Assembly (NCBI GenBank): GCA_964610505.1
Contig: CAZSXU010000007.1
Location: forward strand, 3,594 to 67,593
Reading direction: 5' to 3'
Source of the DNA: an uncultured bacterium
Lineage (GTDB): Bacteria; Arandabacterota; Arandabacteria; JAGLYR01
Length of the DNA: 64,000 nucleotides
A program made the translations under genes and the position numbers. The notes below the pieces were generated by a model, which was not told where the DNA came from, searched no databases, and saw nothing but the letters and a program-made list of their open reading frames with translations. This document shows positions 3,750 to 61,673 of this stretch, piece by piece. The stretch's first letter is position 1; every line of letters starts with the position of its first letter.

Positions 3750-3876
3750 CTGCAGAGAATAGACAATAGAAAATGGACAATAGATCCCGGAGAAGAGCGT
3801 CGGGAGAACGCACAGACCTGATGTCGCCTTGTCGCCCGGTCCCCTTGCGGCCAGGTCGCCTGGTCGCCGTGTCGAG

Positions 3877-14008: not shown

Positions 14009-14055
14009 GGGAGAGCGAGAGAGCGCGACGAATCACAAGACCCCCGTCTGCACCC

Positions 14056-14136
14056 CACGGTGCCGGCCACGGTGCTGGCCACGGCGCCGCCCACGGCACC
14101 GGCCACGGCGCCGCCCACGGCGCCGCCCACGGCGCA
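14056..14136. repeat. Tandem 12-nt repeat CACGG(T/C)GC(C/T)G(G/C)C, about 6.75 copies, in the queA-tgt intergenic region
   Basis: The period-12 repeat can be read directly in the sequence. Confidence 0.85.
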
Positions 14137-14186
14137 AGGCTCGGGCGGGGAACGGCAGAGGGCGGCCCATCCTGGAGGCGTGACGC

Positions 14187-29982: not shown

Positions 29983-30073
29983 CGAGTACGAGTTCGAGTA
30001 CGAAGTACGAGTACGGAAAGAGCGGCAGCATCGTACTCGTACTCGGCTTTTTTGCGGGACTCGTACTCGGGGA
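29983..30073. repeat. (GAGTAC)n hairpin element A: direct GAGTACGAG units plus an inverted CGTACTCGTACTCG arm
   Basis: GAGTACGAGTTCGAGTACGAAGTACGAGTACG, loop, GTACTCGTACTCG, GCTTTTTTG. Related to elements at 31824-31905 and 32384-32455. Confidence 0.85.
30001..30056 (+). terminator. Intrinsic-terminator-like hairpin (stem about 11-14 bp, 16-nt loop, followed by GCTTTTTTG) built from the TACGAG repeat
   Basis: Stem GTACGAGTACG pairs with CGTACTCGTAC, followed by a T6 run. Confidence 0.5.
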
Positions 30074-31808: not shown

Positions 31809-31823
31809 TGCGAGCACAAAAGA

Positions 31824-31905
31824 CGAGTACGAGTACGGGTACGAGTGCGAGTACGGAAGCAGGCCGAATCGTACTCGTACTCAGCGTGAGCGGTACTCGT
31901 ACTCG
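31824..31905. repeat. (GAGTAC)n hairpin element B, immediately 3' of comM
   Basis: Left arm CGAGTACGAGTACG..CGAGTACG, loop, right arm CGTACTCGTACTC AGCGTGAGCG GTACTCGTACTCG. A further direct unit lies at 31963-31984. Confidence 0.85.
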
Positions 31906-32020
31906 TTCTCGAAGGTTTGGGGTTTCACTCCGCGGGGGGGTATTCACTGAGAACCGCGAGGACGAGTACGAAGTACGAGTACGAACAGAAGAAAAGGATC
32001 GCACTCGAAAGGATTGAGTC

Positions 32021-32368
32021 TTGTTCGACCACGAGAAGCTCGACGTCTATCGCGTCAGCATGGATTTCGTGAAGTGGGCCTATCGCTTGTGCAACAGGCT
32101 CAAAGGCGCTGATCGCAATGCCCGCGACCAGCTTTTGCGTGCCTCACAGTCGATCCCCCTGAACATTGCCGAAGGCAACGGAAAGCTTCCCTCACCGGAC
32201 CGGCAACGGTTTCTGCGAATCGCACTGGGTTCCGCGCTAGAATGTGCTGCGATCATTGACGTTCTTGCAGTTGGCGAGGCTATCGAAGACACGACAGCGG
32301 CGAGGGGCAGAGCGCTTCTTGTGCGGGTCGTTGCCATGCTGACGAAAATGACATCGCCCTCCAAGTGA
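32021..32368 (+). CDS. Four-helix-bundle protein (23S rRNA intervening-sequence protein family, TIGR02436-like)
   Basis: 115 aa with the pattern ...YR....F..W...L...L.....R.Q..RA..SI..NIAEG.G.....D...FL.IA.GS..E characteristic of the family. Confidence 0.8.
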   Translation: MFDHEKLDVYRVSMDFVKWAYRLCNRLKGADRNARDQLLRASQSIPLNIAEGNGKLPSPDRQRFLRIALGSALECAAIIDVLAVGEAIEDTTAARGRALLVRVVAMLTKMTSPSK

Positions 32369-32383: not shown

Positions 32384-32455
32384 CGAGTTCGAGTACGAGT
32401 AGGAGTGAGAAGCGGGGAATTATACTCGTACTCAGCGATAGCGGTACTCGTACTC
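32384..32455. repeat. (GAGTAC)n hairpin element C, immediately 3' of the four-helix-bundle gene
   Basis: CGAGTTCGAGTACGAGTA, loop, CTCGTACTC AGCGATAGCG GTACTCGTACTCG GGGTTT. Confidence 0.85.
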
Positions 32456-32745
32456 GGGGTTTAGGATTGTGTTCTGTCCTGCCTTCGAGGAAGAAGGCGG
32501 TTTCACCGAGCGGCTGTACCGGGTACGGAGCCGGAGGCGCGGCGAATGAAGGATCCGGGCACAGCCCAGCGCGTTCACTCCACCTGTCTGGTTTGTCCCA
32601 CGCTCGCGGGGTTTCCCCGCGACGCGATCGAGAGCCACATTACCGTCCTCCGAATAACGGCGCGTACTGCCAAGGATTCGACCCATACAGACTGTCCGGT
32701 AAGGCCTGAAATCTCCATCTGAATCTGTGCACTTGACTTCGTGTA

Positions 32746-40992: not shown

Positions 40993-41526
40993 ATGAAGCG
41001 CGTTGAGGCCGTCCGGCCCGAATCGGTGTGTACGTTGAACGGAGGGTGGGTTCGAATCCTCGCCCTCGGCGCCCTGCTGCTCGTTTCGGGCTGTGCACCC
41101 GTTATAGACAATCTCCCCAAGAACGCTCCCAGGGGATACATCGAATGTCGCTGGCAGGGAAATCCGGGTTTTCCGCTGATGCTTTCGCTGTTTCCGGAGG
41201 GGAGGGACGCCGATCCCCTGGCCGTCTACCGCAGCGACGACAGGAGGGGCCGGGTTCGGTTCGCCGCTCGTCCGGGTGCTCATGTCTTGATCGTCTCCTC
41301 CATTGGGGACGCCGAGTTCCTCTCTACGATCGCCAAAGGGAGCAGACCCTTTGGCCCGCTCCCGGCCAACGAGAGAGAAGCGCTCGCTCTTCAGGTCTGG
41401 ACCGGAATGAAGACGGCCGTCGGCATTGACTTCGAGCGACAGGACAGCTGGTCTAACTGGGCGGGTCGTCCCATCGCCGGTAGCTACCTGATGACGCTCG
41501 CGGCCGAAAGACCGGTACCCAGATAA
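40993..41526 (+). CDS. Hypothetical lipoprotein
   Basis: Lipobox LLVSGC. No recognisable domain. Confidence 0.5.
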   Translation: MKRVEAVRPESVCTLNGGWVRILALGALLLVSGCAPVIDNLPKNAPRGYIECRWQGNPGFPLMLSLFPEGRDADPLAVYRSDDRRGRVRFAARPGAHVLIVSSIGDAEFLSTIAKGSRPFGPLPANEREALALQVWTGMKTAVGIDFERQDSWSNWAGRPIAGSYLMTLAAERPVPR

Positions 41527-41667
41527 CACCCCGAACCGCCGCGCACCCCTGTTTCGGCCCGATTTCTCCCCGCACACCCCATTCCGGGGTGATCATCGCT
41601 TTCGACCTCTGCCTGTGGGACTTCCCAACGGAACATCATCGCACGCATCCCGGGCCCTTGAATTGTC

Positions 41668-41696
41668 TTGACATGCACACGGCCCGGGACATATTG
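41668..41696 (+). promoter_or_regulatory. Candidate promoter for the BMC operon, with a downstream 8-bp inverted repeat (TGTGTGAA ... TTCACACA at 41717-41759)
   Basis: TTGACA, 16-17 nt spacer, CATATT. AT-rich patch in an otherwise GC-rich region. The inverted repeat may be an operator. Confidence 0.35.
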
Positions 41697-41774
41697 TGAA
41701 ATCCTGATATTGATTTTGTGTGAACCCGTATCACTCAGTCGCACATAGAGTTTCACACACGCGGGGAATCGAGA

Positions 41775-43178
41775 ATGACGGAGGCTCTCAACGTGCACCG
41801 TGTGGCCATCGGCGCCGATCATGGCGGTTTTCAACTCAAGGAGCAGCTGAAGGCGTATCTCAACTCCAAAGGGTATGGGCTTGAGGACTGCGGGACCTTC
41901 AGCGAGGAAGCGGTCGACTACCCGAAGATTGCCGCGGCCGTCGCCCGGCTGGTGGCCGAAGGGCGTTCGGAGCGCGGCATCATCATCGACGGCGCGGGGA
42001 TCGGTTCCTCCATGGTGGCCAACAAGGTGCCCGGCGTCCGGGCGGCCCTTTGCTATGATGTTTCCTCCGCGACGAACGCCCGAGAGCACAACGACGCCAA
42101 TGTTCTGACCCTGGGCGCACGAATGATCGGGATCGGCCTGGCCCAGCAGATCGTGGATGTTTTCCTGACGACCGACTGTGTGGAGGATCGCCACCGGCGC
42201 CGGGTAGCCATGATTGGGGAGGTCGAGAGCGGCCGTCCTCTGCCCGCCGCACCGGCAACTCCGACGGCGGAAGCGGGCGCCGGAGTTTCTGAGGGGGATC
42301 TGGATCGCATTGCCCGGGAAGTGGCCGCCATGCTCTCCACGGGGGCAGGCCTGTCTGCGGAATCAAAGGAGACCATTTGCGGGGAACTCGTCTGCGGTCT
42401 GTGCGCAGACTGCATCCAGAGGAATCCCGAAGCCGTTCGCGATCTGATCAACGATACGGGTGCCGACCGCATCAGCCTGGGTCCCGGCGGCGAGGGCGTT
42501 CCTAAGGATCTGGCCAAGTACATCGACCACACGCATCTCAAGCCGGATGCCACGGCTGAGCAAATCCGCAAGCTGTGTCGGGAGGCGGCCGAGTACGGAT
42601 TCGCCGCGGTTTGCGTCAATCCGAACTGGGTTCCCCTCTGCCGGGAGGAGCTGGCGGGAACCGGCGTGGCGGTTTGCACGGTGGTCGGGTTTCCGCTAGG
42701 CGCGCACCAACCGGAGGTCAAAGCCCTGGAAGCCCGGCGGGCGATTCGCGAGGGGGCCCGGGAAATCGATATGGTGATCAACATCGGGGCCCTGAAGGGT
42801 GGAGATCATGCCCTTGTCGAGAGGGACATTCGAACGGTGGCCGACGCGTGCCATGAAGGACGGGCGGTTCTCAAGGTAATTATCGAGACGGCCCTTCTCA
42901 CGGACGAGGAAAAGGTCCTGGCGTGCCGGCTGGCGAAAAAGGCCCGTGCCGACTACGTCAAGACCTCGACCGGATTCGCCGGCGCCGGCGCAACCGCACA
43001 CGACGTGTCGCTCATGAGCGGAGCCGTCAGGGGAACCAAGATGGGGGTGAAGGCCGCAGGAGGTATTGGTTCCGCGGCGGACGCCGAGAAGATGATCCAG
43101 GCGGGCGCGACGCGGATCGGCGCCAGCGCGGGAGTGAAGATCGTCAAGGAGTACAAGCAAGTCACGGTTTCCGAGTGA
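41775..43178 (+). CDS. Fusion protein: ribose-5-phosphate isomerase B (RpiB/LacAB) + linker + deoxyribose-phosphate aldolase (DeoC)
   Basis: N-terminal half [14 protein letters not shown]...[10 protein letters not shown] (RpiB). C-terminal half [13 protein letters not shown]...GFPLGA...KVIIET (DeoC with a Schiff-base Lys). The linker carries an amphipathic helix and a [12 protein letters not shown] motif. Confidence 0.85.
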
Positions 43179-43200
43179 ACGAACAGGTAGGGGAGAGCCC

Positions 43201-43821
43201 ATGGACCTGCGATCGTATGTGTTCCTCGACAGCATTCAACCCCAGTACGCCGCTTTCCTGGGAACGGTGGCGCAAGGATTCCTGCCCATCGCGAACATGG
43301 CGTCGCTCTACGTCGAGATCTCGCCGGGAATCGAGATCAATCGAATCACGGATATTGCGCTGAAATCCACGCGAGTGACGCCGGGGATGCAAGTGGTGGA
43401 GCGCCTCTACGGGTTGCTGGAAATTCACTCGGAATCGCAGGCGGACGTCCGGGAGGCCGGCCGGGCGATTCTTCAGGCGTTGAATCTCAAGGAAGAGGAT
43501 CGCTGGAAACCCAGGATTCTCTCCAGTCAAGTGGTCCGCCGGATGGATGATCATCAGACCCAGCTGATCAACCGGATGCGGCACGGGAATATGATCGTTC
43601 CCGGGGAGACGATGTACGTGATGGAAGTCGAGCCGGCCGCCTATGCCGCTCTGGCGGCGAATGAGGCGGAGAAGGCGGCCGAGATCAACATCCTTGAGGT
43701 TCGCGCGTTCGGCAGTTTCGGCCGCGTGTACCTCGGCGGTGAGGAGCGGGACATCGACGTCGGCTGGCGTGCGGCGGTCGGCGCAATCGAATCGGTAACC
43801 GGAAGGGTCGTGAAGAAGTAG
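43201..43821 (+). CDS. BMC shell protein, tandem-BMC-domain (BMC-T)
   Basis: Two BMC-like halves. The second is canonical ([39 protein letters not shown]). Confidence 0.7.
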
Positions 43822-43872
43822 AAGAGCAACGGGGCACGTTGAGAATCCACTATTCAAGGGAGGCAGTCGGCA

Positions 43873-44187
43873 ATGGCAGAAGCCCTTGGCATGATCGAGA
43901 CCCATAGCTATGCCGCCATGGTCGAAGCGGCGGACGCGATGGTGAAGGCGGCGAAGGTGGAGCTCGTTCATTATGAGAAGATCGGCGGGGGATACGTGAC
44001 GGCCATTATCCGAGGCGACGTGGCGGCCGTGAAGGCGGCCTGTGACGCCGGCCAGGCCAGTGCGTCCCGTGTCGGCGAGGTTGTCGCCGTTCATGTGATC
44101 GCGCGTCCGCATACGAACATCGATCTGGTGCTTCCGCTGGGCCGCCTCGACCAGGTTCGGGCGGAACTGAAGAAGACGACGAAGTAG
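43873..44187 (+). CDS. BMC shell hexamer protein (BMC-H, PduA/EutM-like)
   Basis: [29 protein letters not shown]...[19 protein letters not shown] is canonical BMC-H. Confidence 0.9.
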
Positions 44188-44281
44188 GCCGGTCGCGCCT
44201 GCTGGAGAAGACCGGCCGCGGGGGGAGAGGCGCGTTGAATTGCGCTGCGTCTCACCGACCCCGGAAGGTTGAGGAGTTGCC

Positions 44282-44569
44282 ATGGTTCTGGCCAAAGTGG
44301 TCGGCACGGTTGTCGCCTCGCGCAAAGAGAAGAGCACGGAAGGACTCCGCTTCATGGTCCTCGAGCAGATCGACCTCGACGGCAAGCCCTCGGGAGGGTT
44401 TGTCGTAGCGGCCGACGCCGTGGGGTCGGGTGTGGGTGAAATGGTGCTCTATGCCTCGGGAAGCTCGGCGCGGCAGACTGTAGCGACGGACAAACGTCCG
44501 TGCGACGCGGTGATCATGGCCATTGTCGACCAGTGGGAAGTCGGCGGCAAGACAAAGTACAAGAAGTAG
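44282..44569 (+). CDS. BMC vertex pentamer (BMC-P, EutN/CcmL/PduN family)
   Basis: [13 protein letters not shown]...[19 protein letters not shown] motif. Confidence 0.85.
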
Positions 44570-44738
44570 CCCGGACAATCCATGGAACCCTGCTGCGAGC
44601 AAGACAGGACGAGCCTGAACTGCGTTTCGGAAGCGATTTCGATCCTCGACGGAGCCGGGCTACGCAATCGGCGAAGTCCTATGTAGGCTTGGGGAGCTTC
44701 TGCCATAGGTAGTGTTGGGGTTTGGCGTTGGAGAATTC

Positions 44739-46184
44739 ATGTCTGTGACGTTGTCGGAAGGGCAGATTCGGGAGATCGCACGGCGGGTTGTGGAGTCGCT
44801 GGGAAGATCCGGTGCGCCGCCGACCGCCGCCGGGGCGGCCGCACCCGCGGGAGCCCTGGCCGAAGGCGTGTTTGCGGATGTCGATTCGGCCGCGCGCGCG
44901 GCCGCCGAAGCCCAGCGTTCGCTGGTGGCGATGACCATGTCCCAGCGGGACAAGATCGTTTCCCGAATTCGGCAGGTGATGCTGGATCATGCCGAGGCCC
45001 TGGCGGGTGAGGCTCTGGCGGAGACGGGGCTTGGTCGCCTGGACGACAAAACGGGAAAGAACCGGCTCGTTGCGGAGAAAACTCCGGGGACGGAAGCTCT
45101 TTATCCGACGGCCCGAAGCGGAGATCGAGGGCTGTCGTTGTTCGAACCGGCTCCCTACGGCGTCATCGGGGTCATCACGCCCGTAACCAATCCTACGTCG
45201 ACCATCATCTGCAACACGATCGGAATGGTGGCGGCGGGCAACGGCGTGGTCTTGAACGTCCATCCCTCGGCTAAGACGGTCTCGATCCGAACGGTGAACC
45301 TCATCAACCAGGCCATCCGGGAGGCCGGTGGGCCTTCCAACGTGGTTACCACTCTGGCCGAGCCGACGATCGAATCGGCCCAAGAGCTGATGAAGCATCC
45401 GGGCATCCGTCTCCTGGTCGTGACCGGCGGAGCCGCCGTCGTCAAGGTAGCGATGCAGAGCGGCAAGCGGGCGATCTGCGCGGGCCCCGGGAATCCTCCC
45501 GTGGTCGTGGATGAGACGGCGGATCCGGACCAGGCGGGCCGCGACATTGTCCGAGGCGCATCCTTCGACAACAACATCGTGTGTGTCTGCGAGAAAGAGA
45601 TTCTCGCCGTGGACTCCGTGGCCGACGCCCTCCTGAAATCCATAGGACGTCAGGGAGGGGTTGTCCTCACGGGGGTCCAGCTTCGCCAGATCGAGCGGGT
45701 GCTCTTCCCGCACGACAGGACGCCCGGAAGGCCGGCGGCGGTTGAGAAATCACTCATCGGCAGGGACGCGGGCGTCATCCTCTCCAAGATCGGAGTGAAC
45801 GCGGGGCCGCAAGTCCGGCTGGCCGTGGTGGAAACCGACGCCCAGCATCCTCTGGTGTGGACGGAACAGATGCTTCCCGTCATGCCTCTGGTGAGGGTGA
45901 GAAGCGCCGATGAGGGGATCGACCTGGCTCGGCGCGTCGAGCAGGGCATGAGGCACACGGCCGTGATGCACTCGAAGAATCTGGATCATCTGAGCCGGAT
46001 GGCCAAGGTGATGGACTGCAGCATCTTCGTGAAGAACGGCCCCGCAGTGGCGGGATTGGGTTTCGGGGGTGAGGGCTACTCATCCTTCTCCATCGCGTCG
46101 CCGACGGGAGAGGGGTTGACGGGCCCGAGGCAGTTCTCCAGGGAACGGCGGTGCGTTCTGGTCGATCACTTCAGGATCGTGTGA
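44739..46184 (+). CDS. Acylating aldehyde dehydrogenase (PduP/EutE-like) with an N-terminal encapsulation-peptide-like helix
   Basis: Aldehyde dehydrogenase family core. N-terminus MSVTLSEGQIREIARRVVESL followed by an Ala/Pro-rich linker. GGAG RBS before the ATG at 44739. Confidence 0.9.
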   Translation: MSVTLSEGQIREIARRVVESLGRSGAPPTAAGAAAPAGALAEGVFADVDSAARAAAEAQRSLVAMTMSQRDKIVSRIRQVMLDHAEALAGEALAETGLGRLDDKTGKNRLVAEKTPGTEALYPTARSGDRGLSLFEPAPYGVIGVITPVTNPTSTIICNTIGMVAAGNGVVLNVHPSAKTVSIRTVNLINQAIREAGGPSNVVTTLAEPTIESAQELMKHPGIRLLVVTGGAAVVKVAMQSGKRAICAGPGNPPVVVDETADPDQAGRDIVRGASFDNNIVCVCEKEILAVDSVADALLKSIGRQGGVVLTGVQLRQIERVLFPHDRTPGRPAAVEKSLIGRDAGVILSKIGVNAGPQVRLAVVETDAQHPLVWTEQMLPVMPLVRVRSADEGIDLARRVEQGMRHTAVMHSKNLDHLSRMAKVMDCSIFVKNGPAVAGLGFGGEGYSSFSIASPTGEGLTGPRQFSRERRCVLVDHFRIV

Positions 46185-46807
46185 TGGAACATCCAGCGCT
46201 TGCACTCGTGGAACTGAACAGTATCGCCGCCGGGGCCAGAACGGCGGACGCGATGGCCAAGAAGGCCCCCGTCGAGATCCTGCGTGTGGGGACAATTCAT
46301 CGCGGCAAGTACTTGATCCTGATCGAGGGTAGCGTAGGGGCGGTTGAGGAGTCCTTCGCCGAGGGTCTTCGGGTGGGGGGGGAATCCGTCGTCGATAAGG
46401 TCTTTCTGCCGGAGGTCGATCGGACGGTTCGGGACGCGCTTCTGGGGAATCGACAGACGGGCACGTACGATGCCTTGGGAGTGGTCGAGACCGCCAACGT
46501 GGCGGCCGTGATCGAAGCGGCCGATGGGGGGGTTAAGGGCGCCGACGTCAAGGTGATGGAAGTACGCCTGGGCGATGGGATGGGAGGCAAGGGTCTCGTT
46601 TTCTTCACGGGCAAGGTTCACGATGTAGAGGCCGCCGTGGACATCGCCGTCGAGCGAATCCGGGATCGGCAGACCTGGGTCCAGCAAACGGTCATCCCGA
46701 TTCTTCACGAAGACATGGCGCGGCAGGTGGCGGAATCGACTCGCTTCGGGCCGCGGCGGAGTTCGGGCGGCAGAGCAGCGAGACGGCGGGGCAGCGGAGC
46801 CGATTGA
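46184..46807 (+). CDS. BMC shell protein, tandem BMC domains (PduT-like BMC-T) with an Arg-rich C-terminal tail
   Basis: Two BMC domains (ALALVELNSIAAG..., ALGVVETANVAAVIEAAD...). The start overlaps the AldDH stop (TGATG). Confidence 0.8.
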   Translation: MEHPALALVELNSIAAGARTADAMAKKAPVEILRVGTIHRGKYLILIEGSVGAVEESFAEGLRVGGESVVDKVFLPEVDRTVRDALLGNRQTGTYDALGVVETANVAAVIEAADGGVKGADVKVMEVRLGDGMGGKGLVFFTGKVHDVEAAVDIAVERIRDRQTWVQQTVIPILHEDMARQVAESTRFGPRRSSGGRAARRRGSGAD

Positions 46808-46880
46808 GCGTGTGCACACTCTGCGGTCCCAGGATTGCCGCTCCGCGCTTCTGACGGATGGAACCGGAAGGTGGAATCGA

Positions 46881-47168
46881 ATGCGTCTGGGCCGGGTTAT
46901 TGGGACCGTCGTTCCCTGCGTTGTCTACGAAGGGCTAACGGGTGTTCCGATGCTCATCGTCACGCCGCTGGATAAACGGGGAAAGCCCAAGGGAACCCCC
47001 TTTGTGGCGGCGGATGCAACGCGCATGGCGGGCCCCGGTGAACTCATCTATTACGAAGCTTCTCGAGAAGCCGCCCTGGCGCTCGACCCGTGGTTCGTCC
47101 CTGTGGATCACGCGATCGTGGGCATCGTTGACGGTGTCGAGCGAGACGGCGTGGAGATCAAACCGTGA
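46881..47168 (+). CDS. BMC vertex pentamer (BMC-P), second copy
   Basis: MRLGRVIGTVV...LIVTPLD EutN/CcmL family. ATG at 46881. Confidence 0.8.
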   Translation: MRLGRVIGTVVPCVVYEGLTGVPMLIVTPLDKRGKPKGTPFVAADATRMAGPGELIYYEASREAALALDPWFVPVDHAIVGIVDGVERDGVEIKP

Positions 47169-47437
47169 TCCTCGGGATTGTCAAGGGGACCGTCTACTCG
47201 ACGATCAACCATCCCTTCTACGACAGCCGGCGACTGCTCCTGGTGGATCTCGTCAACCCGAACGGGAGCGAGACGGGAGGCTACCTCATCGCCATCGACT
47301 CGGTCGATGCAGGCGTAGGGGACCGCGTTCTCATGATCGACGAGGGGAATTCCGCTCGGCAGATCGTGGACGATCCGCAGGCTCCACTTCGGTCCATCAT
47401 CATCGGCATTGTGGACGACGTGCAGGTGTCGGCATGA
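47165..47437 (+). CDS. BMC vertex pentamer (BMC-P), third copy
   Basis: MILGIVKGTVYST...GGYLIAIDSVDAGVGDRVL. GTG start overlaps the previous stop. Confidence 0.8.
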   Translation: MILGIVKGTVYSTINHPFYDSRRLLLVDLVNPNGSETGGYLIAIDSVDAGVGDRVLMIDEGNSARQIVDDPQAPLRSIIIGIVDDVQVSA

Positions 47438-47598
47438 GCCTCGTTCGTTGGAACACCAGGGGCGCAGCCGCAGATTGCACAGACCTCACAGCCAAGGGGA
47501 TCTTTCCGGGATGCACTCCCGTGCGTCCCGGGAAGACCCGGTAGCCTTCGCACGTTCTGTGGAATCTGTGTCATCTGTGGTGGGGGGTTCGCCTTCTC

Positions 47599-48303
47599 AT
47601 GAATGCCGCTTGGCACCTCAGGAAAGAGATCGTCGAGTTCGGGCGCAGGGTCTATGAGAAGAATCTCGTGGCTGCGACGGACGGGAACATCAGTGTCCGC
47701 ATCCTGGGGGATCGGCTCCTCATTACGCCGTCGGGATTCTGTCTGGGGGAGCTCAAACCTGAAGACCTGGTCTATGCCGACTTTGAAGGGAGGACACTCT
47801 CCGGGCGAAACGCCCCCTCCAGCGAGCTCCCAATGCACATTGCGGCGTACGAGGAAAGACCCGACGTTCACGCCATCATCCACGCCCACCCACCGGTGAC
47901 CACGGCGTTCACCGTGGCCGGCTACAATCTGGCTCAATGCGTGATTCCGGAGGTTGTCCTGATCTTCGGATGTATCCCCACCACAGAGTATGCAACGCCG
48001 TCATCGGAAGAAGGCCCTCGAGTCATCCGGTCTCTCATCCGGAAGCACGACGCGCTGATTCTCGATCGGCATGGATCCCTTACGGCGGGTTGCAGCTTGC
48101 GGGAGGCGTATCACAAGCTGGAGAAGGTGGAACACTGTGCACAGGTGACCTTGGCCGCTCGCCAGCTGGGTAACGTCAAGACTCTGACGGCGGATCAGGT
48201 AGAGCGTCTCGAAGAGGTCCGGAAGAAGATGGGGCTCGGAAACGGGTCGTCCCTCTGCAATCTCTGCGGAACGTGCGGAAAGTCCGGCCCGGACGATTCC
48301 TGA
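47599..48303 (+). CDS. Class II aldolase/adducin family protein (fuculose-/rhamnulose-phosphate aldolase-like)
   Basis: ATDGNISVR...HAHPP Zn-binding motifs. Confidence 0.85.
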   Translation: MNAAWHLRKEIVEFGRRVYEKNLVAATDGNISVRILGDRLLITPSGFCLGELKPEDLVYADFEGRTLSGRNAPSSELPMHIAAYEERPDVHAIIHAHPPVTTAFTVAGYNLAQCVIPEVVLIFGCIPTTEYATPSSEEGPRVIRSLIRKHDALILDRHGSLTAGCSLREAYHKLEKVEHCAQVTLAARQLGNVKTLTADQVERLEEVRKKMGLGNGSSLCNLCGTCGKSGPDDS

Positions 48304-48361
48304 ACCCGCGTTACTGAAGAGGGCCGGGGACCCCACGGGGGCCCGGGCGACAAAGAAAACG

Positions 48362-48394
48362 GAGCGGCCCTTGCGGGCCGCTCTCGGTGTTTTA
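48362..48394. terminator. Bidirectional intrinsic terminator (9-bp GC stem GAGCGGCCC/GGGCCGCTC flanked by A-run and T-run) after the BMC operon
   Basis: AAAGAAAAC GGAGCGGCCC ttgc GGGCCGCTC TCGGTGTTTT. Confidence 0.6.
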
Positions 48395-48398
48395 GGGC

Positions 48399-48545
48399 CC
48401 CGCAGTGCCGTGAGTCAACCTCGCGAAAATCCGCGCGTCAAGGGAGTTGAAGTCGGCCCGCGAAACCGATCACGAACACTGCAGGGAAACGGGGCGAACC
48501 GTATTCAGTTGTGTCTCTGCAGGGACGCAATCCGTATGCCAGCCG
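48399..48545. repeat. Conserved 145-nt module, copy C (divergent, with indels relative to copies A and B)
   Basis: Shares GCGCGTCAAGG..TTGAAGTCGGCCC.CGAA...CACGAACACTGCAGGGAA...GCGAACC.TATTCA.TTGTG...CAGGG.CGC...TGCCAG with 51125-51270 and 61222-61365. Confidence 0.8.
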
Positions 48546-48913: not shown

Positions 48914-50605
48914 TCAACCGGTCGTCCGATCCGGAACCTGAAGCTTGCCGCTCATCCGCACGGCAATCTCTTTGTGAGCGGCCACGCATTCGCCGAGGAT
49001 CCTCGTCGCCTCCGCCTCGGTTTCCCGGACGAACCGGGGATCGTCGATCCCCGGTAGGTTGATCTTCACGTTGTAGTAGGCGCCCTCTGCGGCTGCGCGC
49101 CCGACCGATGCCGCGACGCCGCCGTCGCTGACCGAGCTCTCCATGCCTTGATCGACGACCTTCCCGGCCAGCTCCATGACCGCGGGAACGCGCCTGAGAA
49201 TCGTGAGCGGCACGAGTGTAGCGTTCCGAGTGGCCTCTTGAATGGCCGCCTCTCGAGCCGCCTTCTCGTCGTCTGTCTTCTTGGGCAATCTCCGGGCCGC
49301 CATGAACTGGTTGAAGGCATGCGTGTCCTGGTTGACCAGGGAGAGGAACTCATCCTTGGCGGCCTGCGCCTCCTCTGCAATCGACGCCATCGCGCCTCGA
49401 AGCCGGACGTAGTCTTTGTTGCCGTGCGTGAGATGAGCCACCATCGACGTGAGCGAGGCGGCCAGCGACCCGGCGAGCGCGGCCACGGACCCTCCTCCGG
49501 GCGCGGGAGAATCCGTGGACAGCTCATCCATGAAATCGGAGACGGGCATCACCGTGAGGTTGACGTCGCCCGCGAACTGGTACTCGATGATCTTCTTCTG
49601 CGGTTCGAAAGGAGTGATCTCACTCATTCCCAGGGATCGCACGGCGATCTTGATCAACTCCTTCTCGGGCACGGCCGGGCACTTGCCCTGCTTGTCGAGG
49701 TAGTACCGTCCGGCCATGAGCATGGCCTCCTTGGGAATGAGGCCCACCAGCTCCGATCCCGTGACCCGCAGGCCGCGCTCGTTGGCTTGCCGGCAAACCT
49801 CTTCGAAGGCTGCGTGGGGCGGCGTCACGTGATAGTTGGTCAGGTTCATGGAGACCTGCGCCGTCTCGAAAGTGTCGAGATACCAGCCTCCGGCCTTGCA
49901 GAACTGGAGTGCGCCGGGGACCTTGACGGCTTTGCCGTCCTTGTCCCGGATGATCTTGCCGGCGCCGTCGCGCTTCGCCCGTCCCTGCTCCCGAATGCTC
50001 AGCGCGATGTCGCGCGCCAACCTCGGATCTCTCGTGTTGAGGTTGATGTTATAGGCAATCAGGAACTCCCGGGCGCCGATCACCGTTGCTCCCGAGCGGG
50101 CGTTGAACACGGGCTCTCCATAGTCCGGGGCCCAGTGAGGGTCCTTGAGTTTCTCCGCCAGCCCTTCGTATTCGCCCTGGCGGATGACGGCAAGGTTCTG
50201 CCGATCCGGCTTCTGCGCCGCGTTCTCATAAAGATAAACCGGAATGGACAGATGCTCGCTGACCCTTTCGGCCAGGCGGTGCGCCATTTCTATGCAGTCG
50301 TCCATGGTCACCCCGGTTACGGGAACGAACGGGCAGACGTCGGTAGCCCCCATGCGAGCGTGCTCGCCGTGATGCCTGCTCATGTCGATGAGCTCGGCGG
50401 CCTTCCGGATGGCGTTGAAAGCGGCATCGACGACGCCCTCCGGTGTGCCGATGAACGTAACCACCGTCCGGTGGGTGTCGGGGCCGGGATCGACGTCCAG
50501 CAGTTTGACCCCCGGCGTATCCGCAATGGGTTTCGTGACGGCGTCGATCACCGCTCGATCTCTGCCCTCGCTGAAATTCGGCACGCACTCGACCAGCTTC
50601 AACAT
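48914..50605 (-). CDS. ftcD: Glutamate formimidoyltransferase / formimidoyltetrahydrofolate cyclodeaminase (bifunctional FtcD-like)
   Basis: N-terminus MLKLVECVPNFSEGRD (formiminotransferase) plus a C-terminal cyclodeaminase domain. Start at 50605; the ORF-track extension to 50830 translates the repeat. Confidence 0.85.
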   Translation of the reverse strand: MLKLVECVPNFSEGRDRAVIDAVTKPIADTPGVKLLDVDPGPDTHRTVVTFIGTPEGVVDAAFNAIRKAAELIDMSRHHGEHARMGATDVCPFVPVTGVTMDDCIEMAHRLAERVSEHLSIPVYLYENAAQKPDRQNLAVIRQGEYEGLAEKLKDPHWAPDYGEPVFNARSGATVIGAREFLIAYNINLNTRDPRLARDIALSIREQGRAKRDGAGKIIRDKDGKAVKVPGALQFCKAGGWYLDTFETAQVSMNLTNYHVTPPHAAFEEVCRQANERGLRVTGSELVGLIPKEAMLMAGRYYLDKQGKCPAVPEKELIKIAVRSLGMSEITPFEPQKKIIEYQFAGDVNLTVMPVSDFMDELSTDSPAPGGGSVAALAGSLAASLTSMVAHLTHGNKDYVRLRGAMASIAEEAQAAKDEFLSLVNQDTHAFNQFMAARRLPKKTDDEKAAREAAIQEATRNATLVPLTILRRVPAVMELAGKVVDQGMESSVSDGGVAASVGRAAAEGAYYNVKINLPGIDDPRFVRETEAEATRILGECVAAHKEIAVRMSGKLQVPDRTTG

Positions 50606-50683: not shown

Positions 50684-51124
50684 GAAGAATAGCGCATTGG
50701 ACAAGAATAGACAATAGACAATGAATGGAAATAGAGAGGTCGGCGGGTTGATATAGAGAAGCGGAGAAGCGGACCGCATTGGAGGAGAATAGACAATAGA
50801 CCGAAATGGTGAAGTCGTCAGGTTCTCCACGACGCCTTTTTCCAGGATCTATTGTCTATTTTCTATTGTCTGCTTCACCATTTCTCTGGGGAACCTAAAC
50901 AGAAAATGGGAGCCAAGTGGCTCCCGAGGTCCGAGGGAAGCGAGGAGAGATTTGAGGATTGGAGGAGAATAGACAATAGACCGAAATGGTGAAGTCGTCA
51001 GGTTCTCCACGACGCCTTTTTCCAGGATCTATTGTCTATTTTCTATTGTCTGCTTCACCATTTCTCTGGGGAACCTAAACAAGAACAGGGAGCCTCATTG
51101 GCTCCCTGTTCTTGTTTAGGTTCC
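50684..51124. repeat. Complex intergenic repeat: AATAGAC iterons, a 180-bp unit in two tandem copies (50781-50960 and 50961-51140, 122 nt identical), and a truncated plus an intact long palindrome
   Basis: GGAGGAGAATAGACAATAGACCGAAATGGTGAAG...TCTATTGTCTATTTTCTATTGTCTGCTTCACCATTTC...GGAACCTAAACA is repeated. A related copy lies at 60952-61167. Confidence 0.85.
51070..51124. terminator. Perfect 25-bp-arm palindrome (GGAACCTAAACAAGAACAGGGAGCC tcatt GGCTCCCTGTTCTTGTTTAGGTTCC): GC stem with flanking A- and T-tracts, like a bidirectional terminator
   Basis: Read directly. The sister palindrome at 61168-61221 has different inner-arm bases that are perfectly compensated. Confidence 0.5.
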
Positions 51125-51270
51125 CCGCATGTGCCGTGTCAGAATTCGTGTCAAGCCTGCGCGTCAAGGTTTTTGAAGTCGGCCCACGAATCAGATTCAC
51201 GAACACTGCAGGGAAGTCGGGGGCGAACCATATTCAATTGTGCTCTCTACCTATTGCAGGGCGCGTGCCA
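51125..51270. repeat. Conserved 145-nt module, copy A
   Basis: Near-identical to 61222-61365 over about 120 nt. Not coding: copies differ by frame-breaking indels. Confidence 0.85.
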
Positions 51271-51553
51271 GGAATGCCGGCGTCCGGCCGTGAAGGCCGT
51301 TTGCGGTTTGGGTGAATTCCTCGTTCGCGTTTACAGAGAGAAGTCGGTCGTGAAATGGGCGATTCTTGACTTTCCTCAAACCTGTCGGAACGCCTTCCGG
51401 TGGGGCGCAGGACGCCATCTCCGGGGACGAACGGTATCCGCCGCCGGTGGGAAATGGAAAAAAGGCCCGGAAGAGCCGGGAAAGTGGGGGAGATGACCCG
51501 ACCGGCCACTCTCGGCTGCGAAACCCGCCTCGTGCCTGTTGCGTAGGAGGGCC

Positions 51554-59819: not shown

Positions 59820-60950
59820 GTGGTCCGCTCGGTTCTCTATCTGGTGCAGAAGGAATTCCGGCAGGTCTTTCGCGACCGGACACTGCTTCGGGTGATTCTG
59901 ATTGTCCCGATCGTGCAGATCTTCGTTCTGGGATACGCGGCGAACACGGATCTCAAGAACGTCCGGCTCTCCGTACTGGATCAGGATTCGAGCCGCGACA
60001 GCCGCTCCCTGGCCGATGCATACTACGCCTCCGACGTGTTTATCCCGGGCCCGCGCGCGTCGTCCCCGGCGGAGCTCCAGAATCTTCTTCTGGAAGGACA
60101 AACGGATGTCGGGTTGTGGATTCCGAGGGGGTACGCAGCGACGTTGCTGACGAGTGACGCCGTCGCCGTCTCTATGACATTCAACGGTCAGAACAGCAGC
60201 GCCGCCGGCCGGAGTGTAGGCTACGCAAGCGAGATCGCCCTTCAGGAAGTCGGTCGGTACCTGGAGTCGGCGGCCCTCGCGCAACCCGACCTTGCACGCC
60301 GGGCCCGGCGGATTGAATCGTCCTCCCGCTTCTTCTATAACCCCGAACTGCGAAGCCAGCACTATATGGTGCCGGGGATCGTGGTCCTCCTGATCACGAT
60401 CATCTCCGCCCTGCTGACGGGCGTGGCGGTGGTGAGGGAGCGGGAGATCGGCACGTTGGAGCAGCTGATGGTGAGTCCTCTCACGCCCGGCCAGTTGATT
60501 GCGGGGAAGACCATCCCGTTTGCCCTCATTGCTTTCTTCGAGTTGACCTTCGCAACGACGGTAGCCGTGCTCTGGTTCAGGCTTCCCCTCGAAGGGTCCG
60601 TGCTGCTCCTCGGTGTTGCGGCCGCGATCTACCTGAATGTAACCCTGGGCGTTGGACTGCTGGCGTCCACGGTCTCGTCCACGCAGCAGCAGGCGATGTT
60701 CACGATGTGGTTCTTCCTGGTGTTCGGGATTCTGATGAGCGGATTCTTCTACCCGATTGAGAACATGCCGCGCGAAGTTCAGTGGCTGACCTACCTGAAT
60801 CCGCTGCGGTACATGATGAGTATGGTCCGCGGGATCTTCCTCCGAGGATCGGGCGTGGTGGATCTCGCACCCGACCTTGCCCGGCTGGCCATCATTGGAG
60901 TCGTGACCTTCGCCGGCGCGGCGCTGAGGTTCCAGAAGAGACTTGGGTAG
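59820..60950 (+). CDS. ABC-2 type transporter permease, second copy
   Basis: Paralog of the previous permease (LVQKEFRQVFRDRTLL). GTG start assumed at 59820. The upstream part of ORF 59469 overlaps the previous gene in another frame. Confidence 0.75.
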   Translation: MVRSVLYLVQKEFRQVFRDRTLLRVILIVPIVQIFVLGYAANTDLKNVRLSVLDQDSSRDSRSLADAYYASDVFIPGPRASSPAELQNLLLEGQTDVGLWIPRGYAATLLTSDAVAVSMTFNGQNSSAAGRSVGYASEIALQEVGRYLESAALAQPDLARRARRIESSSRFFYNPELRSQHYMVPGIVVLLITIISALLTGVAVVREREIGTLEQLMVSPLTPGQLIAGKTIPFALIAFFELTFATTVAVLWFRLPLEGSVLLLGVAAAIYLNVTLGVGLLASTVSSTQQQAMFTMWFFLVFGILMSGFFYPIENMPREVQWLTYLNPLRYMMSMVRGIFLRGSGVVDLAPDLARLAIIGVVTFAGAALRFQKRLG

Positions 60951-60951
60951 G

Positions 60952-61167
60952 GCATTGGACGAAAATAGACAATAGACAATAGACCGAAATGGTGAAGTCG
61001 TCAGGTTCTCCACGATGCCTTTTTCCAGGATCGGGGGGGACGTGGAAAGGACCCATTGCGATAGAGAAGCAGAGAAGCGGACCGAAACGGAAGGGGCTGA
61101 GTGGTTGTCCATGATGCGGTTGTCCGCATCTGTTTCTCTGTTTCTCGGCTTCTCCGTTTCTCTGCGG
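60952..61167. repeat. Complex intergenic repeat, right-hand copy (AATAGAC iterons x3, GAAATGGTGAAGTCGTCAGGTTCTCCACGATGCCTTTTTCC, GAGAAGC shuffled inverted motifs)
   Basis: Related to 50684-51124 and in the same orientation. Confidence 0.85.
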
Positions 61168-61221
61168 GGAACCTAAACAGAAAATGGGAGCCAAGTGGCT
61201 CCCATTTTCTGTTTAGGTTCC
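61168..61221. terminator. Perfect 25-bp-arm palindrome (GGAACCTAAACAGAAAATGGGAGCC aagt GGCTCCCATTTTCTGTTTAGGTTCC)
   Basis: Read directly from the sequence. Confidence 0.5.
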
Positions 61222-61365
61222 CCGCATGTGCCGTGTCAGAATTCGTGTCAAGCCTGCGCGTCAAGGTTTTTGAAGTCGGCCCACGAATCAGATTCACGAA
61301 CACTGCAGGGAAGTCGGGGGCGAACCATATTCAATTGTGATCTCCACCCATTGCAGGGCGCGTGC
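61222..61365. repeat. Conserved 145-nt module, copy B
   Basis: Near-identical to 51125-51270. Confidence 0.85.
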
Positions 61366-61673
61366 CAGAAGACGTGGGTCGGGAGAAAAAGTGAACGCGG
61401 TGCCATCCCGTGAATGTGAGTTCACAGGGAGACGCCCTGTAGGAGCGCGTGAGGGGCATTCGTGAGAGTCAGAAATGTCGAACGTAATGTGGCAAGACCG
61501 AGAGTTTGGAACCCAGCTACGGGCCGACAAGGGAGCGATCTGAGCCAACTCCCCCAGATCCTGTCTCGGAAGCGGGTCAGATCCCTCAATCGGGCACCGT
61601 TGTCTTCCCTGTAGGAGGGGATTCCTATCCCCGGTGCTTGAATCCGGTCCCGTCCGCTGGTAACGTCTGGCTG

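Follow-up and report, generated by a model that had tools for sequence, protein, structure and literature searches.

Multicopy small RNAs that depend on sigma-54 and are transcribed from −24/−12 promoters include Qrr1–5 of Vibrio, CrcZ and CrcY of Pseudomonas, and GlmY and GlmZ. Bidirectional intrinsic terminators, which lie between convergent transcription units, set one GC-rich stem between an upstream A-run and a downstream U-run, and preserve the pairing of this stem while its sequence is free to change. Here we analyse a 64,000-nucleotide stretch of DNA (hereafter the window) from an uncultured bacterium of the Arandabacterota (assembly GCA_964610505.1, contig CAZSXU010000007.1, positions 3,594 to 67,593), in which an earlier reading of the sequence, the original prediction, had singled out two long perfect palindromes. 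Comparison of the sequence with related lineages indicates that these palindromes are most probably terminator hairpins, each belonging to one of two copies of a small RNA gene that had escaped annotation. Like the Qrr, Crc and Glm RNAs, the RNA is present as several paralogues per genome with near-identical bodies and intrinsic terminators of their own. It represents a conserved small RNA family new to Rfam, which shows no sequence or Rfam similarity to those RNAs and, unlike them, is hosted by an uncultured candidate phylum, one without cultured members.

Two palindromes at the end of a repeated, probable RNA unit

Both palindromes are real, and their arms are longer than the 25 bp first noted. 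Palindrome C (51068–51126) joins two perfect 27-nt arms through a 5-nt loop, and palindrome D (61163–61226) joins two perfect 31-nt arms through a 2-nt loop, as determined with a repeat finder and by reading of the sequence; the longest other perfect hairpin in the window has 12 bp. Their fold energies of −56 and −59.8 kcal/mol, respectively, give them roughly double the stability of the orthologous hairpins of relatives (about −29 to −41 kcal/mol), and the arms, being perfect as DNA, are equally stable on either strand. A search of the window for the arm frame GGAACCTAAACA, which had been proposed as a check, returned exactly five occurrences, every one within these elements. The arms of C and D differ at four positions (AGAACA versus GAAAAT, positions 1, 2, 5 and 6) and have GGG in common; all four differences are mirrored in the opposite arm, and the loops differ too. 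The mirroring had been described correctly, the number of differences had not: four of the nine positions counted actually differ. The truncated third copy also exists, as copy B (50888–50925), which is identical to D at 38 of 38 positions.

The palindromes form the 3′ end of a repeated minus-strand unit consisting of a promoter (TGGCACGCGCCCTGCA), a body of about 125 nt and the hairpin. The elements in the window are given below, where R1 is a covariance model built from six sequences and FTCD is formiminotransferase-cyclodeaminase.

51253 to 51270, minus strand: sigma-54-type −24/−12 promoter of copy C (TGGCACGCGCCCTGCAAT), strict match, predicted start near 51244
51118 to 51246, minus strand: body of small RNA copy C, R1 score 151 bits, E = 4e-38, fold z = −8.7
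51068 to 51126, minus strand: palindrome C, putative terminator hairpin of copy C
61350 to 61367, minus strand: sigma-54-type promoter of copy D, strict match, predicted start near 61341
61215 to 61343, minus strand: body of small RNA copy D, R1 score 152 bits, the same as C over 130 nt
61163 to 61226, minus strand: palindrome D, putative terminator hairpin of copy D
50888 to 50925, minus strand: truncated copy B, D-type, with a GC stem-loop (50908–50925) and the full 3′ arm and U-rich run (50888–50907)
48527 to 48541, minus strand: sigma-54-type promoter of copy E (TGGCATACGGATTGC; TGGCAT-N5-TTGC), motif match
48393 to 48517, minus strand: body of the diverged copy E, R1 score 92.7 bits, E = 2e-22, between the FTCD stop codon and a convergent aldolase gene
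48351 to 48385, minus strand: terminator of copy E, of the ordinary intrinsic kind (GAGCGGCCC gcaa GGGCCGCUC, then CGUUUUCUUUG)
50690 to 51271, no strand assigned: repeat segment at the FTCD locus, from the repeat finder
60948 to 61368, no strand assigned: dispersed duplicate of the FTCD-locus segment, directly after the stop codon of the ABC-2 permease gene

The body of copy C opens with a 5′ leader (ACAAUUGAAUAUGGUUCGCCCCC), followed by an imperfect hairpin of about 95 nt with an invariant apical region (GGGCCGACUUCAAAAACCUUGACGCGC). On the RNA strand, palindrome C then contributes the 5′ arm GGGGAACCUAAACAAGAACAGGGAGCC, the loop AAUGA, the GC core GGCUCCC, the U-rich UGUUCUUGUUUAGG and UUCCCC, its initial GGGG being part of the conserved end of the RNA body. 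Copies C and D are identical at 130 of 130 positions across the body and the outer 5′ arm, from just after the predicted start; they differ at three of the ten positions between −12 and the predicted start (+1), and at four of six in the inner 5′ arm. Their similarity ends precisely at the −24 element, after TGGCACGCGCCCTGCAAT (minus strand, 51270–51253 and 61367–61350). Compared with shuffled controls, the whole transcripts fold with z values of −8.7 (copy C) and −8.1. Two further ideas about the RNA body were discarded: a small peptide, since the 26-codon open reading frame has no ribosome-binding site, and a pseudoknot between leader and loop (UUGAA/UUCAA), since loop changes in two relatives (L016 and L017a) are uncompensated.

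Copy B is made up of a left arm of the D type, the loop and a 7-nt part of the right arm, with no A-rich 5′ arm; exactly the GC core and the U-run are retained, and its GGGAGCCACTTGGCTCCC and ATTTTCTGTT were scored as terminator-like on the minus strand by a terminator scan. Copies C and D went unscored because their long arms absorb the U-run.

The three copies of the RNA lie within 13 kb. Copy C is located between FTCD (minus strand, 48914–50605) and a divergent MacB-type ABC operon, and copy D between the stop codon of the ABC-2 permease gene (60950) and a flavin reductase gene, with its palindrome about 215 nt past that stop codon, which ends a convergent plus-strand operon.

Promoter motif and probable terminator across the RNA family

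To place the unit among relatives, we collected contigs encoding FTCD proteins 74–79% identical to that of the window and scanned public collections for the conserved body pattern; in NCBI records, the label Candidatus Eisenbacteria is attached to the nearest named relatives of the window's FTCD protein and to the related lineages with copies of the RNA. Model R1 recovered ten members at 49–152 bits in the window and five related lineages: C, D and E of the window, two each in L004 and L017 (a and b), and one each in L007, L010 and L016. The units of L004 (L004a), L007 and L010 lie upstream of FTCD in the same orientation, as copy C does, and have a TGGCAC-N5-nTGC promoter, a body closely resembling that in the window and a long hairpin of quite different sequence. 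Copy E (48351–48541) has same-position counterparts in L004 (13566–13704) and L017 (861–949). R1 found no member in the more distant, Coatesbacteria-like FTCD loci L019 and L020, in the 9 kb past the right end of the window or in viral contigs, and pattern matches in L012 and L014 fall inside coding sequence and were set aside as chance. At gathering thresholds, Rfam gave no match in the window or the related loci. Covariation in the RNA body is modest (5 of 29 pairs with double-sided changes) because the body is so conserved.

The promoter motif is rare and its position is conserved. The sigma-54 signature was taken to be GG-N10-GC with the consensus TGGCAC-N5-TTGC, set at a constant spacing from the start of the transcript. 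The C and D promoters read TGGCAC-N5-CTGCA, close to this −24/−12 consensus, and strict matches to TGGCAY-N5-YTGC number only two on both strands of the 64 kb, namely the C and D sites (0.05 expected for the 18-mer). In all ten members TGGCAY-N5-nTGC is found 14–18 nt upstream of the conserved ACAACUGAAUA at the RNA start, with an unconserved spacer between them. A conserved motif followed by an unconserved spacer is the signature expected of a promoter just ahead of a transcript start, and it is this promoter motif that suggests sigma-54 dependence.

The hairpin is equally constant in position and far more variable in sequence. It directly follows a conserved GCGGGG or GUGGGG in 10 of 10 members, its stem ranges from 9 to 31 bp, its sequence differs from lineage to lineage, and in most members a GC core separates an A-rich 5′ arm from a U-rich 3′ arm. 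The stems are as follows.

Window copy C: 27 bp, perfect
Window copy D: 31 bp, perfect
Window copy E: 9 bp of GC, then CGUUUUCUUUG
L004a: 19 bp
L004b: 14 bp
L007: 14 bp
L010: 18 bp
L016: 14 bp, perfect, with no U-run
L017a: 19 bp
L017b: about 12 bp

Between lineages these hairpins are unrelated in sequence, except that those of L004a and D are recognisably alike. An RNAalifold analysis found 14 pairs with double-sided changes, nearly all in the terminal helix. Where the stems are imperfect (L004a, L007, L010 and L017a), the positions concerned are G·U on the RNA sense strand, and the sense hairpin is 3.6–8.6 kcal/mol more stable than the antisense one in L004a, L004b, L007 and L017a, and slightly less stable in L010. 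The G·U positions and the stability of the sense hairpin point to selection on the RNA of the minus strand.

The hairpins have the features of intrinsic terminators: a GC stem-loop, followed in most members by a U-rich run, stands at the 3′ end of the unit in every member. On the minus strand, C reads GGGAGCC-AAUGA-GGCUCCC and then UGUUCUUGUUUAGG, and D and B read GGGAGCCACUUGGCUCCC and then AUUUUCUGUUUAGG. The original prediction of a Rho-independent terminator therefore stands, on a hairpin that ends the conserved unit in all ten members and is kept while its sequence is replaced between lineages. Its bidirectional architecture stands as well: the arms are symmetric, a GC core precedes a U-rich run on both strands, and six members face a convergent gene, consistent with a symmetric design, among them D (the ABC-2 operon), E (the aldolase gene), L004b, L017a and L017b. 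The order of A-tract, GC core and T-tract had been read correctly, except that the T-tracts lie inside the long arms and do not flank them. In contrast to the usual bidirectional terminator, the arms of C and D are 27–31 bp long and perfect, and extend 8–12 bp past the U-run, into the flank on one side and the end of the RNA body on the other. Very long stems can make terminators resistant to processive antitermination (PMC10325885); nothing in the window indicates such a system.

What is terminated differs from what had been supposed. Insulation of the flanking operons is not the main role at copy C, where no plus-strand gene is transcribed towards the hairpin; the transcription unit that ends here is instead the predicted minus-strand small RNA gene with its own sigma-54-type promoter. 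As a mechanism, we propose that sigma-54 RNA polymerase would initiate near 51244 or 61341 and transcribe the conserved leader and then the conserved imperfect hairpin; the GC core (GGGAGCC/GGCUCCC) followed by the U-rich UGUUCUUGUUUAGG or AUUUUCUGUUUAGG would bring about termination, giving an RNA of about 165 nt. The complementary A-rich run of the 5′ arm would present the same DNA as a GC core and U-run on the plus strand, and the terminator would therefore be bidirectional, which would be relevant at copy D, with its convergent ABC-2 operon, and at copy E, with its convergent aldolase gene. A terminator needs pairing and not a given sequence, and differences between the arms would therefore persist only if mirrored. 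Transcription, the termination points and sigma-54 dependence are all predicted here from sequence. Bidirectional use of palindrome D is plausible given the convergent operon. A separate terminator-like hairpin lies on the plus strand at 61113–61139 (GATGCGGTTGTCCGCATC, then TGTTTCTCTG), 35 nt before palindrome D, and the ABC-2 operon may already be terminated there.

Several observations count against this account. Past the expected termination point the 3′ arm has a further, outer 8–12 bp, which termination therefore leaves unexplained although B, C and D share them without a difference, and the stem of L016 is followed by no U-run. No GAFTGA or ESELFG motif of a sigma-54 activator was found in any reading frame of the window or the fetched loci; the members share no upstream activator site, a 9-mer search having returned GC-rich background words only. 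Copy D has the promoter but none of the region upstream of it in copy C, and is therefore possibly not activated.

Origin of the mirrored arm differences

The original prediction offered two sources for the mirrored differences, selection at the level of RNA or DNA structure and a mechanism that copies one arm from the other. RNA-level selection is favoured by the G·U stem positions on the sense strand in orthologues; arm copying is argued here from the pattern of the differences. The arms of C and D are about 10 bp longer than termination requires and reach the end of the conserved RNA body. Their 3′ flank is complementary to this body end, whose partner in the body stem is CCCUGC in every member, and a terminated transcript would exclude the 3′ extension of the arm. 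The differences between C and D are confined to one small patch with identical sequence on either side. From the perfect, over-long arms and the patch of differences we infer an arm-copying step, and we lean, without much confidence, towards DNA-level copying from arm to arm as what shaped these arms in this genome. One arm would have been altered and then copied onto the other, either by intrastrand template switching at a quasipalindrome or by short-patch conversion.

Template switching at quasipalindromes makes imperfect repeats perfect (PMC7202029). The Ripley model of this process would explain both a perfect, longer repeat and a mirrored change of several bases in one step; here, in contrast, the event is read from the pattern, and the single polymorphism seen, at 51074, is unmirrored. 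Loop inversion, a hallmark of some template-switch events, is absent, as the loops of C and D are not reverse complements. Alternatively, the change could have come from a short conversion templated by an unseen paralogue.

A tenable but less than probable explanation keeps the same terminator function and derives the mirrored differences from stepwise compensatory substitution under RNA-level selection, with no copying of arms. The terminator stems of orthologues have wholly diverged yet remain paired, with G·U intermediates visible. The three differences among ten apparently unconstrained positions of the promoter spacer show that C and D are not very recent; there has been time, and stepwise compensation is therefore a possible source of the mirrored changes. 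Copies B and C, however, are identical at 124 of 124 positions in their left flanks and outer arms, yet their interiors are unlike, by 4+4 arm positions and by the loop. Of the four changed pairs, two are transversion pairs, which have no wobble intermediate and require mismatch intermediates, and both palindromes are perfect past the U-run, beyond the reach of RNA-level selection on a terminated transcript.

The history of the copies can be partly reconstructed. On the minus strand, the FTCD-locus segment (50690–51271) reads promoter, RNA, palindrome C, duplicated block, terminator B, duplicated block and remains of the FTCD promoter region. The D-type hairpin is probably ancestral, because D-type hairpins resemble that of the orthologue L004a, and copy B is probably the remnant of the ancestral terminator at the FTCD locus. 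Segment 60948–61368 appears to have arisen when 50690–51271 was duplicated to a distant site, just behind the stop codon of the ABC-2 permease gene; in L004 the orthologous spacer measures only 103 bp and holds no element.

Blocks of short repeated words accompany the copies, at 50785–50871, 50965–51051, 60960–61032 and 61070–61160, with another at 3758–3802. Their arms are tandem 7–8-nt words (AATAGAC/ATTGTCT and AGAGAAGC/GCTTCTC) around a core starting CCGAAAYGG, with pairing partners interleaved rather than nested, and in L016 and L017 similar runs come after the RNA gene. The blocks were apparently amplified from the FTCD promoter region, and the ATTGTCT words that separate the hairpins from FTCD resemble repetitions of the ancestral −35 region of FTCD, which reads CTCTTTTCCATTGACGG in L004 and CTCTATTTCCATTCATTGTCTATTGTC in the window.

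The palindromes also leave their mark on sequence assemblies. The window itself is a metagenomic contig (ENA ERZ27256778, k141_1583066), and contigs nearly identical to it are present in other samples. Over 20,750 bp, the sole difference between the window and an independent ENA assembly (L001) is C versus G at 51074, in the outer arm of palindrome C, and it removes the perfect symmetry of the arms; the cause may be either a real polymorphism at a mutation hotspot or faulty assembly of the hairpin. JGI metagenome contigs of the same population end inside the palindromes: L003 starts at window position 51120, and L013, L022 and L023 have ends inside palindrome D, with three JGI assemblies breaking within palindromes. 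The palindromes account for the assembly breaks at these sites. The extended frame GGAACCTAAACA-N16-46-TGTTTAGGTTCC had no match in genome, metagenome and viral collections, a result that is partly uninformative, as its absence from the metagenome collection arises because these contigs stop inside the palindromes.

Other readings and the genomic setting

At permissive thresholds, 6S RNA (ssrS, RF00013) was the best Rfam match for four independent members.

Window copy C: 37.4 bits, E = 2e-6
Window copy E: 32.4 bits, E = 3.4e-5
L010: 31.2 bits, E = 0.012
L004a: 26.6 bits, E = 8e-4

The matched blocks are, in order, CCCUGCnGUGUUCGU, GGGCCGA, CAGGCUU and ACGGCACnnGCGGGG, which correspond to the 6S closing stem and the edges of the central bubble. 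All four scores (26.6–37.4 bits) fall below the gathering score of 46.4 bits, and L016 and L018 have no 6S match. Nor is the rod structure of 6S present: the terminal arm and most of the bubble (81–127 model positions) are missing, with a loop of about 23 nt instead. Filing the RNA as 6S was rejected on the scores and the absent terminal arm. It also differs from 6S in its sigma-54-type promoter, its three copies in 13 kb, its 5′ leader, and a terminator hairpin of its own in place of processed, paired ends. A likeness of setting is worth recording. The FTCD and ygfA enzymes both yield 5,10-methenyl-tetrahydrofolate. The 6S gene often adjoins the 5-formyltetrahydrofolate cyclo-ligase gene ygfA (PMC9130861, citing Barrick 2005 and Wehner 2014), and here the folate one-carbon gene FTCD adjoins the RNA.

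We regard it as unlikely that the RNA is a shortened, sigma-54-transcribed relative of 6S that still binds RNA polymerase as a decoy for the housekeeping holoenzyme, with a functional long 3′ hairpin. If it were, the decoy would come on in response to an enhancer-dependent signal, the long perfect hairpin would be more than a terminator, for instance by taking the place of the missing duplex arm, and the folate-gene neighbour would recall the long-known, unexplained linkage of ssrS and ygfA.

It is more doubtful still that the unit is a cis-acting leader of FTCD, an attenuator or riboswitch-like element in which the sigma-54 transcript would respond to a signal and the hairpin, as a regulated terminator, would decide read-through into the gene. 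The unit does lie directly upstream of FTCD and co-oriented with it in four lineages (window copy C, L004a, L007 and L010), and FTCD, a gene of folate and histidine catabolism, is of a kind that often has RNA leaders. The six members that face a convergent gene, however, have no co-oriented gene downstream. In three relatives, moreover, a conserved sigma-70-type promoter, TTTTCnATTGACG-N17-TAYCnT, stands between the hairpin and FTCD (L004 9862–9905, L007 2318–2362 and L010 6543–6585), and we found no alternative anti-terminator pairing and no riboswitch match in Rfam. A free-standing small RNA is the better reading. In the window, the corresponding region at about 50686–50714 on the minus strand reads TTGTCT-N17-TATTCT.

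Least probable of all is that the palindromes act as DNA, with the adjacent RNA incidental: a site of cruciform formation or recombination, a target of a dimeric protein (the nearby TetR, for example) or the termini of a mobile element (a miniature inverted-repeat transposable element, a repetitive extragenic palindromic element or an insertion sequence) might show arms that are perfect and equally stable on both strands, outer arms that agree in B, C and D around a variable interior, segments duplicated in tandem and at a distant site, and breaks in three JGI assemblies, but no transposase, RAYT or integrase lies nearby, the frame has no match in viral, genome or metagenome collections, the hairpins at orthologous positions are unrelated in sequence and some of them pair as RNA although imperfect as DNA, the half-sites are about 40 bp apart, too distant for a simple dimer operator, and the outer 5′ arm is part of the conserved RNA body. 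An insertion-sequence junction, named in the original prediction as what would overturn it, is contradicted by the same lack of a transposase, by the absence of any match in viral collections and by a position that is syntenic in relatives, and integron and phage origins were rejected with it, no mobility genes being present. The neighbours are FTCD, ABC transporters, TetR and flavin reductase, all copies are attached to the RNA body, and no further palindrome copies occur in the 9 kb beyond the window.

Other features of the window deserve brief mention. A bacterial microcompartment locus (about 41500–48300), with microcompartment shell proteins, EutN/CcmL, an aldehyde dehydrogenase, a class II aldolase and an RpiB/DeoC fusion, directly adjoins FTCD and the RNA genes, an arrangement kept in L004, L007 and L017. 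Hairpins at 29987–30055, 31823–31905, 31957–32007 and 32385–32456 have stems of tandem CGAGTA/TACTCG words, in one case followed by TTTTTT. Their construction is like that of the word arms beside the palindromes, and they flank a gene for a 115-residue protein (32021–32368) with a match to the 23S rRNA-intervening-sequence protein family (PF05635, E = 3e-21). At 14042–14149, seven to nine copies of a 12-nt unit (GCCACGGTGCCG-like) lie in tandem.

By themselves the palindromes are unremarkable: mirrored changes are to be expected in terminator hairpins, which they probably are. With their perfect arms, patch-like mirrored change and a lone polymorphism within a palindrome over 20.7 kb, they may offer a natural case for the reshaping of terminators by template switching. 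The modest interest of the locus lies in the RNA family that they expose, conserved, preceded by a sigma-54-type promoter and present in three copies within 13 kb. The consistent, sub-threshold likeness of these RNAs to the 6S closing stem, together with their folate-gene neighbour, is a lead on the diversification of 6S-like RNAs.

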